Virus genome (UHGV): UHGV-0095783 | Strand: one strand, 5' to 3' | Source: a virus | DNA: 23,905 bases | Shown here: positions 1,391 through 11,075 of the stretch, piece after piece | Numbering within the stretch: position 1 is the stretch's first letter | Layout of the letters: each line of letters begins with the position of its first letter | Made by a program: the position numbers and the translations under genes | The notes under the pieces: generated by a model | Seen by the model: only the letters and a program-made list of their open reading frames with translations | What the model was told of the DNA's origin: nothing | Databases searched by the model: none

Positions 1391-2816
1391 TTTTTATGCG
1401 CCGCCCCATAGCATCGAGGCAGAGCAGGCGGTGATTGGTGGATTGCTTCTGGATGATGACAGCAGTGAGCGCGTCCAGAAAGTTCTGGCGATGCTGAAGC
1501 CTGATTCATTTTACAGCCGACCACACAAAATCCTTTTCGAAGAGATAACCAGAATGCACCGGGAGCAAAAGCCAGTAGATGGCCTGACGCTTTTCGATGA
1601 ACTGGAGCGTAAATCGTTAACGGCGTCTGTTGGCGGTTTTGCTTATATCGCTGAGATCGCAAAGAACACGCCAAGCGCAGCAAACATCGTTGCCTATGCA
1701 ATGCAGGTTCGTGAAACCGCAATGGAACGCTACGCCATCAACCGCATGACTGAAGCGACGGAATTGCTCTATTCCCGCAACGGAATGACTGCAACGCAGA
1801 AGTACGAAGCTATTCAGTCGATTTTCACGCAACTGACAGACCATGCAAAAACCGGATCGCGTCGCGGCCTTCGTTCATTTGGTGAGGTCATGGAAGACTG
1901 GGTTAGCGACCTTGAGAAGCGATTTGACCCATCAGGCGAACAACGGGGAATGAGCACAGGGATCCCATCGCTGGACAGGATGCTGTCACCGAAAGGTCTG
2001 GTGAAAGGCTCTCTGTTTGTCATTGGCGCTCGCCCTAAGATGGGGAAAACGACGCTATACAGCCAGATGGCAATCAACTGCGCAGTGCATGAGAAAAAGC
2101 CCGCTCTGATGTTCAGCCTTGAAATGCCAGGTGATCAGATACTGGAAAAACTGGTAGGGCAGAAGTCTGGTGTTAACCCGAATATTTTTTACCTTCCGGC
2201 GACAAATGACGCTGATGACGGCTATCAGGGTGATTACGATGGTGACTTCAACAGGGCGATCGAAACAGCCAATCGCTTGAGTGAAATCGACCTGCTTTAC
2301 ATCGACGACACGCCGGGATTATCTCTGGCTCAAATCGTCAGCGAAAGCCGTCGAATCAAGCGAGAAAAAGGATGTGTTGGCATGATTCTGGTCGATTACC
2401 TGACACTAATGACCGCTGAGAAGGCCGATCGCAACGACCTTGCTTACGGCATGATCACCAAAGGACTGAAGAACCTTGCCAAAGAGCTTGATTGCGTTGT
2501 TGTGCTTCTGACACAGCTTAACCGCGCATTGGAAAGCCGAACCAATAAACGCCCATTACCAAGTGACTCGCGAGATACAGGGCAGATTGAACAGGATTGC
2601 GATTATTGGGTCGGGATCCATCGTGAAGGTGCTTTTGATGACAGCGTTCCTCCTGGTGAAACCGAACTAATCCTTCGTCTCAATCGTCATGGCAATACCG
2701 GCACGGTGTATTGCATTCAGGCAAATGGCGCTATTTATGACACAGACCAACAGTCTGCTGAAATGCGCCGACGTGAACGCGAGGAACCGCAGTCCAAGAA
2801 GAAAGGAGGATTCTGA
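1380..2816 (+). CDS. replicative DNA helicase, DnaB family (P22 gene 12-like)
   Basis: N-terminus PPHSIEAEQAVIGGLLLD…GGFAYIAEIAKNTPSAANIVAYA parallels E. coli DnaB as recalled; Walker A GARPKMGKT. ATG 1380 preferred (gaggg SD 9 nt upstream); the track ORF opens at GTG 1365. Overlaps the initiator stop. Confidence 0.9.
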   Translation: MTDNFYAPPHSIEAEQAVIGGLLLDDDSSERVQKVLAMLKPDSFYSRPHKILFEEITRMHREQKPVDGLTLFDELERKSLTASVGGFAYIAEIAKNTPSAANIVAYAMQVRETAMERYAINRMTEATELLYSRNGMTATQKYEAIQSIFTQLTDHAKTGSRRGLRSFGEVMEDWVSDLEKRFDPSGEQRGMSTGIPSLDRMLSPKGLVKGSLFVIGARPKMGKTTLYSQMAINCAVHEKKPALMFSLEMPGDQILEKLVGQKSGVNPNIFYLPATNDADDGYQGDYDGDFNRAIETANRLSEIDLLYIDDTPGLSLAQIVSESRRIKREKGCVGMILVDYLTLMTAEKADRNDLAYGMITKGLKNLAKELDCVVVLLTQLNRALESRTNKRPLPSDSRDTGQIEQDCDYWVGIHREGAFDDSVPPGETELILRLNRHGNTGTVYCIQANGAIYDTDQQSAEMRRREREEPQSKKKGGF

Positions 2817-2846
2817 TGACCGTCTACATCACTGAGATAATAACAG

Positions 2847-2875
2847 GGGCTATTTACACAGTAGCCCTTTTTTAT
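2847..2875 (+). terminator. rho-independent terminator after the helicase gene (tR2-like position)
   Basis: 6-bp stem gggcta/tagccc (2847-2852 with 2862-2867), 9-nt loop, then a T7 run at 2868-2874. Confidence 0.6.
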
Positions 2876-2900
2876 TGGATTAAGAACGAGGGGGATCCTG

Positions 2901-3113
2901 ATGGACACCGTTAACGGAATGTGTTCAGACGCACCGCGTGCCAAAAAATGTAAGTGCGGAAAATCACCGACAATATTCGACATGGAGAACGGGTGCCAAA
3001 TCTACTGCGCTAACCACGCTGTTGTGGCGGCCGCGAATTATCGCAGTGCGGTAACGGAGTGGAATAACCTGAAATCTGTTAGAGAGGGAAGTCATGAAAA
3101 AACTAACCTTTGA
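2901..3113 (+). CDS. small Cys-rich protein; possible Lar-family restriction-alleviation protein
   Basis: 70-aa ORF with a CxCG…CxxxC…HxxV cluster and a following AVTEWNN motif that resemble the Lar zinc-ribbon family as I recall it. Sits where lambda has ren, between the replication genes and ninB. The family call is tentative. Confidence 0.45.
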   Translation: MDTVNGMCSDAPRAKKCKCGKSPTIFDMENGCQIYCANHAVVAAANYRSAVTEWNNLKSVREGSHEKTNL

Positions 3114-3534
3114 AATTCGATCTCCAGCACATCAGCAAAACGCTATTCACGCAGTACAGCAAATCCTTCCAGACCCAACCAAACCAATCGTAGTAACCAT
3201 TCAGGAACGCAACCGCAGCTTAGACCAAAACAGGAAGCTATGGGCCTGCTTAGGTGACGTCTCTCGTCAGGTTGAATGGCATGGTCGCTGGCTGGATGCA
3301 GAAAGCTGGAAGTGTGTGTTTACCGCAGCATTAAAGCAGCAGGACGTTGTTCCTAACCTTGCCGGGAATGGCTTTGTGGTAATAGGCCAGTCAACCAGCA
3401 GGATGCGTGTAAGCGAATTTGCGGAGCTATTAGAGCTTATACAGGCATTCGGTACAGAGCGTGGCGTTAAGTGGTCAGACGAAGCGAGACTGGCTCTGGA
3501 GTGGAAAGCGAGATGGGGAGATCGGGCTGCATGA
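3094..3534 (+). CDS. ninB: NinB recombination protein
   Basis: 146-aa translation is essentially the lambda NinB sequence as recalled. Confidence 0.9.
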   Translation: MKKLTFEIRSPAHQQNAIHAVQQILPDPTKPIVVTIQERNRSLDQNRKLWACLGDVSRQVEWHGRWLDAESWKCVFTAALKQQDVVPNLAGNGFVVIGQSTSRMRVSEFAELLELIQAFGTERGVKWSDEARLALEWKARWGDRAA

Positions 3535-4058
3535 CTATCAAAGCAAATACGCCAGCACACGACAAGGACTGCTGGCAAACGCCGCTTTGGCTTTTTGATG
3601 CACTGGATATTGAGTTTGGATTCTGGCTGGATTCGGCAGCGAGCGACAAAAATGCTCTGTGTGCTCACTGGCTAACTGAGGCCGACGACGCGCTCAATTC
3701 TGAGTGGGTAAGCCACGGTGCAATCTGGAATAACCCACCGTACAGCAATATCAGGCCGTGGGTGGAAAAAGCCGCTGAGCAGTGCATACAACAGCGACAG
3801 ACGGTAGTGATGCTTGTGCCAGAGGATATGTCAGTCGGATGGTTCAGCAAGGCTCTGGAGAGTGTCGACGAAGTTCGCATTATCACTGATGGACGGATTA
3901 ATTTTATCGAACCATCGACAGGGCTGGAGAAGAAGGGAAACAGCAAAGGCTCCATGCTGCTGATTTGGCGACCGTTCATCAGTCCTCGACGGATGTTTAC
4001 TACCGTATCCAAAGCGGCATTGATGGCGATCGGGCAGGGCGTCAGGAGGGCAGCATGA
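3531..4058 (+). CDS. phage DNA N6-adenine methyltransferase (Dam type)
   Basis: ATG 3531 overlaps the ninB stop (ATGA). NPPY motif (…[11 protein letters not shown]…) and WQTP…[11 protein letters not shown]-terminal region typical of phage Dam methylases; occupies the ninC/ninD position. Confidence 0.8.
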
Positions 4059-8207: not shown

Positions 8208-8705
8208 ATGAAATCATTAACCCTCTTCAATCAACCAATTCGTATCGGTGAAGATGGCATGATCTGCCTCACTGATATGTGGAAAGCCAGTGGTAAAAGT
8301 GAATCTGAATCGCCTTACCACTACCTGCGAAACAAGCAGACCAAAGAGTTCTTAGCCGAGCTGGAGAAAAACCACGAATCTGTGGTTTTTACTGAGCGCG
8401 GTGTACACGGTGGAACATATGGCGGGAAGTTTGTTGCTTACGATTATGCGGCTTGGTTAAACCCCGGGTTCAAGTACGCGGCCTATAAAGTCCTCGATGA
8501 CTACTTCACCGGAGAACTTCAGCATCGCAACAGCTTAAGTGCGCAGCTCAACATGAAATGTCATGAGTTTGACCAGAAGAAAGACATGGCGAGCTTCTGC
8601 GGACAAGGGCTGGCAGCATGGCGCTATACGAAGCCAGTGTTGGTCGCTGAGATTAACTCCCTGGCTAACCAGCTGCAGATTACGATCCCCGGGCTTCCGG
8701 GATGA
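8208..8705 (+). CDS. KilA-N domain-containing protein (accessory gene)
   Basis: 165-aa ORF; N-terminal region (…IRIGEDGMICLTDMWKASGKSES…YLRNKQTKEFLAEL…) fits the KilA-N DNA-binding domain pattern as recalled. Lies between the lysis cassette and cos, where lambda has bor on the opposite strand. Confidence 0.55.
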   Translation: MKSLTLFNQPIRIGEDGMICLTDMWKASGKSESESPYHYLRNKQTKEFLAELEKNHESVVFTERGVHGGTYGGKFVAYDYAAWLNPGFKYAAYKVLDDYFTGELQHRNSLSAQLNMKCHEFDQKKDMASFCGQGLAAWRYTKPVLVAEINSLANQLQITIPGLPG

Positions 8706-8971
8706 GTGATCGTGTCATTGAATGCGCCTCCAGAGCGGGGCGCGACTTCTCAGAGTTCATGAAAGGCGAGAAGGGCATGATGGAAGCATTGGCCTCGGTG
8801 GATGAGTTTGGCGAGCAGCTGCGCCTCAACGGCTGTGTCAATCATCACTTTGTTAGCTACATGATGCGGAACTCGATCATGCAGGCATTCATGGACATGG
8901 CAAAAGCCGAGAGGAAAGAAGAGCGCCGGCGTAAGCGAGCGGAAGCAAAAGCAAAAGCAAAAGTGAAGTAG
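8702..8971 (+). CDS. hypothetical protein (89 aa) translationally coupled to the KilA-N gene
   Basis: ATG 8702 overlaps the upstream stop (ATGA). Highly basic/acidic C-terminal tail (KAERKEERRRKRAEAKAKAKVK). No recognised family. Confidence 0.5.
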   Translation: MSDRVIECASRAGRDFSEFMKGEKGMMEALASVDEFGEQLRLNGCVNHHFVSYMMRNSIMQAFMDMAKAERKEERRRKRAEAKAKAKVK

Positions 8972-8979
8972 CCATTACA

Positions 8980-9001
8980 AAGCCCATCTACGGGTGGGCT
9001 T
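8980..9001. other. stem-loop after the 89-aa gene (no U-tract)
   Basis: 7-bp stem aagccca/tgggctt with an 8-nt loop, 9 nt after the stop; no T-run on either strand. Confidence 0.4.
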
Positions 9002-9465
9002 GATAATGAAACCGGAATTTATTCTGGGCCACCAGTTAACGGCAGTACCACGAAACAACCCAAGCCAGTAAGTGGGGAAATAACACTGGCAGCCACTGAA
9101 AGATGAACCTCCTGCCTTATGGCAAAAAAGATTCTTTGTGGTGGCGGACTGATGGAAAGACATCGGTTATTGCAGAGGCCATTCAATGAGTGGTCTCGAC
9201 AATGGCTTATACCCTACACGGGATAACTTAACTGATATCCCTTTTAACGGATAAAGGTATTCAAGCCTGACACATCATGCGCTGTATCGTCGCCGTATTC
9301 CCGCATTAACCATGACCGTAGCCCGACGGGGAATTCCTTCTGCGTGAGTGTGCGGGAATAATCAAAAACGATGCACACCGGGTTATTAACGCGTCAACTG
9401 AACGCGGGGTTGCTCTTCATGTCAGCCAGTCCGGTGCAGGGGTAGAAGAAACCGGACGTTATGGT

Positions 9466-9876
9466 TTAGTGTGGAAACATTTGTGATGTGCTCTGTATGT
9501 TTTCAGTAAAGAGTAATGAATTATCAAAGGTATAGTAATATCTTTTTTGTTCGTGGATATTTGTAACCCACCGAAAAACTCCTGCTTTAGCAAGGTTTCT
9601 TCTGTATTCCTGAAATGTGATCTCTCTGGATTTCAGCTTATTAGAGGTCGTTTCTATAAGATGCCTATCCTTTGAAAATTTGACAGACACAATGTTTTTT
9701 AGGCCCTTTAATAACACTGTATTATCATTTTTTAATACAATATGAACATTCTCTGTGGCTAAATAGTAAATGTAATGTGAGACATTGTGACGTTTTAGCT
9801 CAGAATAAAACCATTGATAGTTTAAATCGTTTCGAACTTTATCAAATATTTGTTTAAAAATGACTACCTGATCCAT
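9466..9876 (-). CDS. DUF1398-like protein (E. coli prophage YbcV/YdfO family), AT-rich accessory gene
   Basis: Minus-strand ORF in a markedly AT-rich block. ATG at 9876 has SD GGAAGG 7 nt upstream, giving 136 aa; the track's 141-aa start at 9891 has no SD. Family call rests on recalled E. coli prophage proteins and the position beside cos. Confidence 0.55.
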
Positions 9877-9933
9877 AGATAAACCTTCCATGTGATATGA
9901 GGGGGCGTAGTCTGCACGATTATCTAAATTGCT

Positions 9934-10167
9934 TCAATCTGGTCTGACCTGTTTTCTGAGCAATTCAGTAATGTCACTCTTTTCTTTGTTTGCTTCAGGA
10001 GAAACTCTTTTTTCTGAGCACAGTCTCCGGCGGCAGGCTTCAATGACCCAGGCTGAGAAATTCCCGGACCCTTTTTGCTCAAGAGCGATGTTAATTTGTT
10101 CAATCATTTGGTTAGGAAAGCGGATGTTGCGGGTTGTTGTTCTGCGGGTTCTGTTCTTCGTTGACAT
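9934..10167 (-). CDS. small RHH-like protein (E. coli prophage YlcI/YnfO family)
   Basis: 77-aa minus-strand ORF, basic N-terminus MSTKNRTRRTTTRNIRFPNQMIEQINIALEQKGSGNFSAWVIEACRRRL consistent with a ribbon-helix-helix fold. Immediately upstream of, and co-oriented with, the DUF1398-like gene (57-nt spacer). Confidence 0.55.
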   Translation of the reverse strand: MSTKNRTRRTTTRNIRFPNQMIEQINIALEQKGSGNFSAWVIEACRRRLCSEKRVSPEANKEKSDITELLRKQVRPD

Positions 10168-10329
10168 GAGGTTGTCCCGTATTCAGTGTCGCTGATTTGT
10201 ATTGTCTGAAGTTGTTTTTACGTTAAGTTGATGCAGATCAATTAATACGATACCTGCGTCATAATTGATTATTTGACGTGGTTTGATGGCGTAGATGCAC
10301 GTTGTGACATGCAGATGATAATTATTATC

Positions 10330-10555
10330 ATTTTGCGGGTCCTTTCCGGCGATCCGACAGGTTACGGGGCGGCGACCTCGCGGGTTTTCGCTATTTATGA
10401 AAATTTTCCGGTTTAAGGCGTTTCCGTTCTTCTTCGTCGTAACTTAATGTTTTTATTTAAAATACCCCCTGAAAAGAAAGGAAACGACAGGTGCTGAAAA
10501 CGAGCTTTTGGGCCTCTGTCGTTTCCTTTCTCTGTTTTTGGCCGTGGAATGAACA
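10330..10555 (+). promoter_or_regulatory. cos: cos packaging site (cosQ-cosN-cosB); cohesive-end sequence at 10367-10378
   Basis: Exact lambda 12-nt cohesive end GGGCGGCGACCT at 10367-10378, preceded by the lambda right-end sequence …gatccgacaggttacg and followed by the lambda left-end sequence up to Nu1, as recalled. Confidence 0.9.
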
Positions 10556-11075
10556 ATGGAAGTCAACAAAAAGCAGCTGGCTGACATTTTCGGTGCGAGT
10601 ATCCGTACCATTCAGAACTGGCAGGAACAGGGAATGCCCGTTCTGCGAGGCGGTGGCAAGGGTAATGAGGTGCTTTATGACTCTGCCGCCGTCATAAAAT
10701 GGTATGCCGAAAGGGATGCTGAAATTGAGAACGAAAAGCTGCGCCGGGAAGTTGAAGAACTGCGGCAGGCCAGCGAGACAGATCTCCAGCCAGGGACTAT
10801 TGAGTACGAACGCCATCGACTTACGCGTGCGCAGGCCGACGCACAGGAGCTGAAAAATGCCAGAGACTCCGCTGAAGTGGTGGAAACCGCATTCTGTACT
10901 TTCGTGCTGTCGCGGATCGCAGGTGAAATTGCCAGTATTCTCGACGGGATCCCCCTGTCGGTGCAGCGGCGTTTTCCGGAACTGGAAAACCGACATGTTG
11001 ATTTCCTGAAACGGGATATCATCAAAGCCATGAACAAAGCAGCCGCGCTGGATGAACTGATACCGGGGTTGCTGA

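Follow-up and report, generated by a model that had tools for sequence, protein, structure and literature searches.

The ynfO-ydfO pair of a Qin-type lambdoid prophage is probably two separable accessory cassettes abutted beside cos

The window analysed here, by which we mean the whole 23,905-nt stretch of virus genome UHGV-0095783, is a lambdoid Escherichia coli prophage with 99.9% DNA identity to E. coli chromosomes in which the same two coding sequences, ynfO and ydfO, are annotated. Both genes run antisense to the late operon, with the lysis genes upstream of them and the Nu1, A, and portal genes downstream; the terminase A, portal, head, and tail genes follow Nu1, all on the plus strand. 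An earlier note on this DNA had described two minus-strand ORFs separated by 57 nt, lying in AT-rich DNA close to cos and antisense to the late genes, and our ORF, GC, and cos-alignment analyses bear out each of these points: the gap spans 9877–9933, and GC content is 0.32–0.39 over 9400–10000 versus 0.47–0.57 in the flanks. The features used below are located as follows, in window coordinates.

Left part, plus strand: replication and nin genes, Q, holin, lysozyme, and Rz, followed by the KilA-N gene
8208–8705, plus strand: KilA-N gene, 165 aa
8702–8971, plus strand: gene for an 89-aa protein (PHROG 875), overlapping the KilA-N gene
9285–9465, minus strand: non-coding segment 3′ of ydfO, the downstream edge of the DUF1398 cassette
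9466–9876, minus strand: ydfO-type DUF1398 gene, 136 aa, pI 9.6
9884–9889, minus strand: Shine-Dalgarno GGAAGG, read from the sequence, 7 nt before the ATG at 9876
9934–10167, minus strand: ynfO (YlcI/YnfO, DUF3950), 77 aa, pI 10.6
9937–9953, minus strand: PdhR-box-like palindrome AACAGGTCAGACCAGAT, overlapping the last ynfO codons, at the upstream edge of the DUF1398 cassette
9937–10020, minus strand: ynfO C-terminal tail, specific to its tail class
10021–10167, minus strand: ynfO core, codons 1–49, nearly invariant
10237–10269, unstranded: 33-bp imperfect palindrome ATCAATTAATACG-N7-CGTCATAATTGAT, 70–100 nt 5′ of the ynfO ATG
10315–10331, unstranded: perfect 8-1-8 palindrome ATGATAAT-A-ATTATCAT, just left of a cosQ-like GGGTCCT
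10367–10378, plus strand: cosN cohesive end GGGCGGCGACCT, located by alignment with the cos site annotated in phage DE3
10556–11101, plus strand: Nu1 small terminase subunit (Pfam Phage_Nu1, E 3.9e-101), divergent from ynfO

The start codons of ynfO and Nu1 are 388 nt apart, and the same spacing is found in most of 80 related loci, in K-12 Qin, and in DLP12. On the other side, the KilA-N gene and the 89-aa gene occupy the interval between Rz and the ydfO cassette in late-operon orientation, the place where lambda has bor; the KilA-N/ORF11CD3 protein falls in PHROG 129, labelled "transcriptional regulator", and gives a weak PADLOC match to PDC-S22 (E 1e-8). The segment at 9285–9465 is homologous by pairwise alignment to the DLP12 ybcV-borD segment, the bor gene itself being absent here, and no coding sequence is annotated over it in a near-identical E. 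coli chromosome. A short minus-strand ORF at 9244–9378 is also present in other loci, close to their Rz end (L213, L216). An Rfam scan of 8900–10700 returned just one chance miRNA match, below threshold.

The smaller protein scores 75.6 bits against Pfam DUF3950 (PF13132, cut-off 25) and 36.7 bits against NCBIfam YlcI_YnfO_N (NF041551, cut-off 30), and it is 96–97% identical to proteins named YlcI/YnfO. The larger protein scores 157.8 bits against Pfam DUF1398 (PF07166, cut-off 22) over profile positions 1–119 of 119. Both family assignments had been proposed in the earlier note, and they stand, since every curated cut-off is exceeded. The longer minus-strand ORF for the second gene, 9466–9891, encodes 141 aa from its first ATG and 136 aa from a second ATG at 9876; we favour the 136-aa start because of the GGAAGG placed 7 nt before it, and NCBI PGAP/RefSeq picks the equivalent ATG both in a 99.9% identical E. 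coli chromosome and in K-12. The product is ~97% identical to K-12 YdfO, a soluble protein whose structure was determined by solution NMR (PDB 2HH8), and it has that fold. It consists of two α2-β3 repeats with 15% aromatic residues and a GRAVY of −0.56, and when the sequence was read by eye no signal peptide and no hydrophobic or membrane span was seen. The residues conserved across the family (L27, Y35, T41, N43, A96, G99, W103, and Y114) include none that is typically catalytic, and no toxin or defence family or fold was matched by DUF1398. The YdfO-type protein is a soluble cytoplasmic α/β protein with an orphan fold unlike that of any known toxin.

Both families are abundant in E. coli. 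Among 5426 complete genomes, 4184 contain the ynfO core, at 9861 places in all and with no more than 12 copies in any one of them; the ydfO gene matches 5376 of the 5426, in many of which the match is only to the weakly similar chromosomal paralogue ycgX; and the 1.2-kb ynfO-ydfO region matches 4971. A literature search found neither YnfO/YlcI nor the DUF1398 family with a known function, and a 2025 survey states that no inference is possible for ycgX. The sole functional claim that we found for YdfO, that its overexpression raises oxidative-stress resistance (PMC4077768), was rejected, as the source cited for it (PMC3105296) never mentions ydfO and reports YfdK, YfdO, and YfdS of the CPS-53 prophage. 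That claim is a transposition of the gene names YfdO and YdfO, and the mix-up is repeated for ydfO in PMC8711792. The statement in the earlier note that DUF1398 has no established function is borne out.

The closest counterpart of this locus is in the K-12 Qin prophage, where ynfO (b4533) and ydfO (b1549) have the same order, orientation, lengths (77 and 136 aa), and 57-nt spacer, and where the Nu1 homologue nohA lies 388 nt from ynfO, as here. Qin is a decayed remnant, whereas the lambdoid prophage of the window appears to be complete, its lysis and head/tail genes all being there, and beyond ydfO Qin has gnsB and cspI where the window has the KilA-N and 89-aa genes. The right end of lambda and DLP12 differs from both in reading ylcI, ybcW, ybcV (lambda p78, p79), and then bor, with ylcI and ybcV parted by a 533–656-nt segment that carries ybcW on the opposite strand, and with a ylcI of 64 aa that has another tail than ynfO here. 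Each gene nevertheless sits in a block that is shared with these phages. From cosN to the ynfO ATG is 199 nt, this stretch is 98% identical to phage DE3, and DE3 shares the same block from cosN to codon 49 at 98% identity. For the second gene, homology to DLP12 ybcV runs from ~75 nt 5′ of the ATG to ~180 nt past the stop codon, so that DLP12 has the same DUF1398 cassette as the window. The Qin-type layout thus resembles the lambda/DLP12 layout minus ybcW, and the 28-residue ynfO tail is largely junction-encoded.

The lambda right end also turned up where it does not belong. About 30 species-representative GTDB "genomes" of unrelated taxa (L089–L126), for example Streptomyces, Cohnella, Pedobacter, Flavobacterium, Shewanella, and Enterococcus, contain contigs that are the phage lambda right end with ylcI and p78 intact, ~10 of these contigs being roughly 3.5 kb long. 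One such contig is deposited as a 3566-bp Arcanobacterium hippocoleae "plasmid" (CP136411.1), and many ENA proteins from contigs of equal length follow the same pattern. These contigs look like contamination with control or spike-in DNA (probably the control strand of nanopore sequencing), with some deposited as plasmids.

Comparison between ynfO tail classes places a mosaic junction at codon 50: the 200 nt 5′ of ynfO and codons 1–49 are 86–98% identical between classes, and the DNA past codon 49 is essentially unrelated. Across 31 distinct alleles of the core, mean pS is 0.31 and mean pN 0.021 (pN/pS 0.069), and 23 of the 36 variable sites are third codon positions; the core is under strong purifying selection. 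YnfO-like genes of 51 aa (48–57% identical) also occur as solitary genes in the chromosomes of four Tatumella species (L125, L127, L128, L129), and a YnfO-like gene is likewise solitary in a Rouxiella chromosome (L123). They lie around 3500–3660 of their loci in a setting without obvious prophage character. In three Tatumella species the gene is placed between a malic-enzyme-like gene and a gene for a 444-aa transporter; in the fourth (L127) another gene is upstream and the transporter is still downstream. In these genera the family may serve in regulation unrelated to phage.

The YnfO core is likely to be an Arc-type ribbon-helix-helix (RHH) domain. Aligned by hhalign, a nine-sequence YnfO profile places residues 10–35 on Arc 7–32, with NIRFP on NLRWP, at E 0.003 and an hhalign probability of 10%; the Arc query was checked and matches 1ARQ/1ARR/1PAR over its full length (E 1.6e-31). 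The AlphaFold2 (AF2) model has an extended basic N-terminus to residue 18, helices at 19–32 and 37–52 with core pLDDT 70–83, and a low-confidence helix at 60–73, and it is a model of a monomer, the RHH strand forming only in the dimer. In a Foldseek search of this model against the PDB nothing was significant, ParD2 being the best plausible match (E 9); the YnfO profile found no match in PDB sequences, single-sequence phmmer gave no hit, and the Pfam RHH families gave none even below threshold. The Arc/Mnt/CopG/MetJ regulators and the RHH antitoxins (ParD, MazE of Mycobacterium, TacA) accordingly have no significant sequence or fold score to YnfO, and unlike those antitoxins YnfO has no cognate toxin.

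The DNA between ynfO and cos contains two palindromes. The 33-bp palindrome at 10237–10269 has 11 of 13 arm matches, a score reached by 19 of 2000 dinucleotide shuffles of the 199-nt region, and it is nearly unchanged in all loci of the cos/Nu1 type though their flanks vary. It is the best candidate for an operator or promoter element of ynfO. Its half-site has no second good copy in the window, none being better than 2 mismatches, which is the chance level. The palindrome is missing from the loci in which ynfO adjoins an HNH module (described below), and a search for a shared operator 5′ of the Tatumella, Rouxiella, and HNH-type ynfO genes found none; because it is absent both there and at the distant homologues, the palindrome may serve cos and not ynfO. 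The second palindrome, at 10315–10331, is present in lambda and DE3 too, with one or two changes, and the adjacent GGGTCCT (10337–10343) is presumably cosQ-like, judged by the lambda sequence. A sigma-70 consensus scan found no minus-strand promoter, and no terminator was found between ynfO and ydfO.

The site at the other end of ynfO ties the second gene to the host. The sequence at 9937–9953 is identical to the K-12 site given for ynfO>ydfO in genomic SELEX with PdhR (PMC7660256), in which the equivalent ybcV site was bound as well and ybcV mRNA was down 10-fold in a pdhR mutant. As this PdhR site lies at the upstream edge of the shared DUF1398 cassette, ydfO has its own host-wired control. 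Other published expression data concern the same genes. K-12 ydfO is induced 12- to 116-fold by ionic liquid, and its expression changes upon DicC induction; overexpression of T4 MotB raises ybcV and ybcW more than 1000-fold, in a paper whose title has MotB altering H-NS-dependent repression; and in K-12 at least half of the RNA-seq samples analysed show overlapping ybcW and ylcI transcripts.

We sorted the ynfO loci by the class of their C-terminal tail and then inspected the gene downstream, with the following outcome for the three main classes.

CSEK class, that of this window, 77 aa: DUF1398 57 nt downstream in 79 of 80 loci of a first scan and in 15 of a second
INEK class, 74 aa, ~60 loci: DUF1398 absent within up to 3 kb; a convergent PerC-like ORF is next, then Rz and R
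ATDATH class, 66 aa, 78 loci with at least 700 nt of room: DUF1398 absent; a convergent lipoprotein-like ORF is next

The gap in the CSEK class is 41–42 nt if measured to the longer DUF1398 ORF, and the one remaining locus of the first scan had no hits. Members of a further class, STES, also have ynfO without DUF1398, and ~140 prophage loci have ynfO without a downstream DUF1398 gene. In the INEK loci (L135–L197; for example L166, 3307–3621) a 104-aa ORF (MLHDHVAECLEKKGLYRRAAERW...) lies between Rz and ynfO, convergent to ynfO, in many prophages; its product may resemble PerC. The ATDATH ynfO is found beside a lambda-type Nu1 as well as beside an HNH module. In two IMG/VR loci of the latter kind (L216 and L249, around 2594–3201) it is 41 nt from a divergent HNH endonuclease gene, after which comes a P27-type small terminase gene, and in HNH-type loci the DNA 5′ of the ynfO ATG is unrelated to that of cos/Nu1-type loci. 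The occurrence of ATDATH ynfO beside the HNH/P27 module means that ynfO marks the lysis/packaging boundary whatever the type of terminase.

The second gene, too, occurs without the first. P0401, a 134-aa DUF1398 protein that is 37% identical to YdfO, is encoded ~110 nt from cosN without ynfO, an arrangement found in 24 contigs from E. albertii and E. coli prophages, and in the contigs that encode distant DUF1398 members the genes are solitary in chromosomal contexts, as is the K-12 paralogue ycgX. The two genes assort independently, even in the slot beside cos.

The layout of the pair has a side effect in databases. The ynfO stop codon TGA and the ydfO ATG share a reading frame (9874–10167), and therefore gene callers that take TGA as sense output a 233-aa "fusion". 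One protein in our set (P0121, from a cluster of 761 member sequences) is such an artefact, with TGA read as tryptophan and with both Pfam domains. We used this fused chain as a crude proxy for a complex prediction: AF2 gave the DUF1398 domain a pLDDT of ~95, the YnfO tail <50, and an overall pTM of 0.59, the YnfO part was less confident than when modelled alone, and there was no sign that YnfO and YdfO dock.

These data bear on several explanations of the locus. The earlier note had read the two genes as an autoregulated two-gene module resembling a toxin-antitoxin system. On such a reading YnfO would be the RHH antitoxin and repressor, and its C-terminal tail would neutralise YdfO as the toxic effector. 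The layout fits, in that the RHH gene comes first and the larger gene second on the same strand, 57 nt apart, and the 77-aa tail class always has DUF1398 next to it; this strict link is also compatible with a YdfO-binding tail. Toxicity could be masked in trans by the ynfO/ylcI copies of nearly every E. coli: the hosts in which YdfO was presumably overproduced for 2HH8, and those in which ybcV was overexpressed from ASKA clones, carry such copies. One TraDIS study has few transposon insertions in ydfO. In the ASKA work, ybcV overexpression gave a glycogen-deficient phenotype and so placed the gene in one list with the known toxins hokA and yoeB, and because such toxins share that list the phenotype is uninformative on toxicity. 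Against the module, ynfO and DUF1398 are each found without the other, ybcW stands between them in lambda and DLP12, DUF1398 has an orphan fold, the fused-chain model gives no sign of docking, and ydfO has its own PdhR-bound site. The locus has neither an obligately co-inherited adjacent pair nor an effector with a toxin family, fold, or active site. Because each gene assorts independently, we regard ynfO and ydfO as accessory prophage genes and not as a toxin-antitoxin pair, a dedicated module being, in our estimate, quite improbable. We give hardly more credence to an anti-phage defence or superinfection-exclusion pair in an accessory hotspot, in which YdfO would hinder incoming phage under regulation by YnfO, and which again does not square with genes that form no obligate pair. 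PADLOC-DB 2.0 has no match for YnfO and only Csx23 for YdfO (E 0.013, 13.5 bits), our literature search found no paper tying either family to defence, and a single ydfO loss among phage-resistant mutants is listed without interpretation.

Two further readings deny one of the genes its role. If the ynfO ORF were incidental, it could be conserved merely as part of the cos packaging signal, as might be supposed from the conserved block that runs without a break from cosN into codons 1–49 and ends there. The 31 alleles, however, differ mostly synonymously (pS 0.31, pN 0.021, 23 of 36 sites in third positions), the same core lies beside an HNH/TerS packaging module with unrelated upstream DNA, and it recurs in Tatumella and Rouxiella chromosomes at 48–57% amino-acid identity; with a pN/pS of 0.069, conservation merely as part of cos is ruled out, and we consider an incidental ORF very improbable. 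A place for the DUF1398 protein in the virion, as part of the head or envelope, is suggested by database labels only ("head protein" for PHROG 413, "putative envelope protein" for lambda p78) and is hardly credible for a gene antisense to the late operon whose product is hydrophilic (GRAVY −0.56), is soluble by solution NMR, and has homologues in non-phage chromosomal contexts. The lambda virion proteins are not known to include p78.

The explanation that we favour, and think probable, is that the ynfO-ydfO pair of Qin-type lambdoid prophages is two separable accessory cassettes expressed in the lysogen and abutted here, one for a regulator and one for a binding protein. Both occupy an accessory ("moron") position, flanked by the lysis cassette and cos, and are read in the direction opposite to the late operon. 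Like the lambdoid morons bor and lom, ynfO and ydfO are antisense to the late operon, differ in GC from their flanks, lie at a module boundary, and are patchy among close relatives, and they have regulatory signals of their own, as expected of prophage moron or lysogenic-conversion genes; Bor is annotated as a lipoprotein, and phenotypes are known for Bor and Lom, whereas the products of ynfO and ydfO are cytoplasmic. The first cassette, from cosN to ynfO codon 49, encodes a small putative DNA-binding protein with a probable Arc-like RHH core, perhaps a dimeric transcription regulator that represses its own promoter through the conserved 33-bp candidate palindrome, and its C-terminal tail is whatever the mosaic junction at codon 50 provides. 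The second, from ~75 nt 5′ of the ydfO ATG to ~180 nt past its stop, brings a soluble, basic, aromatic-rich protein of orphan fold together with its own upstream regulatory site, bound in K-12 by the host pyruvate sensor PdhR. The two cassettes would have come to within 57 nt of each other when the ybcW segment known from lambda and DLP12 was lost, and because of the short gap so left ydfO is probably also read through from the ynfO promoter. From its composition and fold, YdfO would bind a host macromolecule, either protein or nucleic acid, and would be neither enzyme nor toxin.

A bolder reading of the same two cassettes, which we think unlikely, makes YnfO a lysogen-expressed RHH "gatekeeper" of the lysis/packaging boundary that steers a swappable cargo slot, with DUF1398 as one PdhR-wired cargo. 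YnfO might then act on antisense transcription and late read-through, or determine how accessible the packaging region is, and the DUF1398 cargo might bind nucleic acid or a host protein and alter host carbon metabolism or phage susceptibility.

The ynfO-ydfO pair is catalogued and already known, and it adds no new kind of system. Its interest lies in how common its parts are: few uncharacterised genes of E. coli are as widespread as ynfO/ylcI and DUF1398, and phage lambda has both. Two separable cassettes in place of a toxin-antitoxin pair, a very strongly constrained ynfO core, and a PdhR site at ydfO/ybcV narrow down which experiments could reveal what these genes do.
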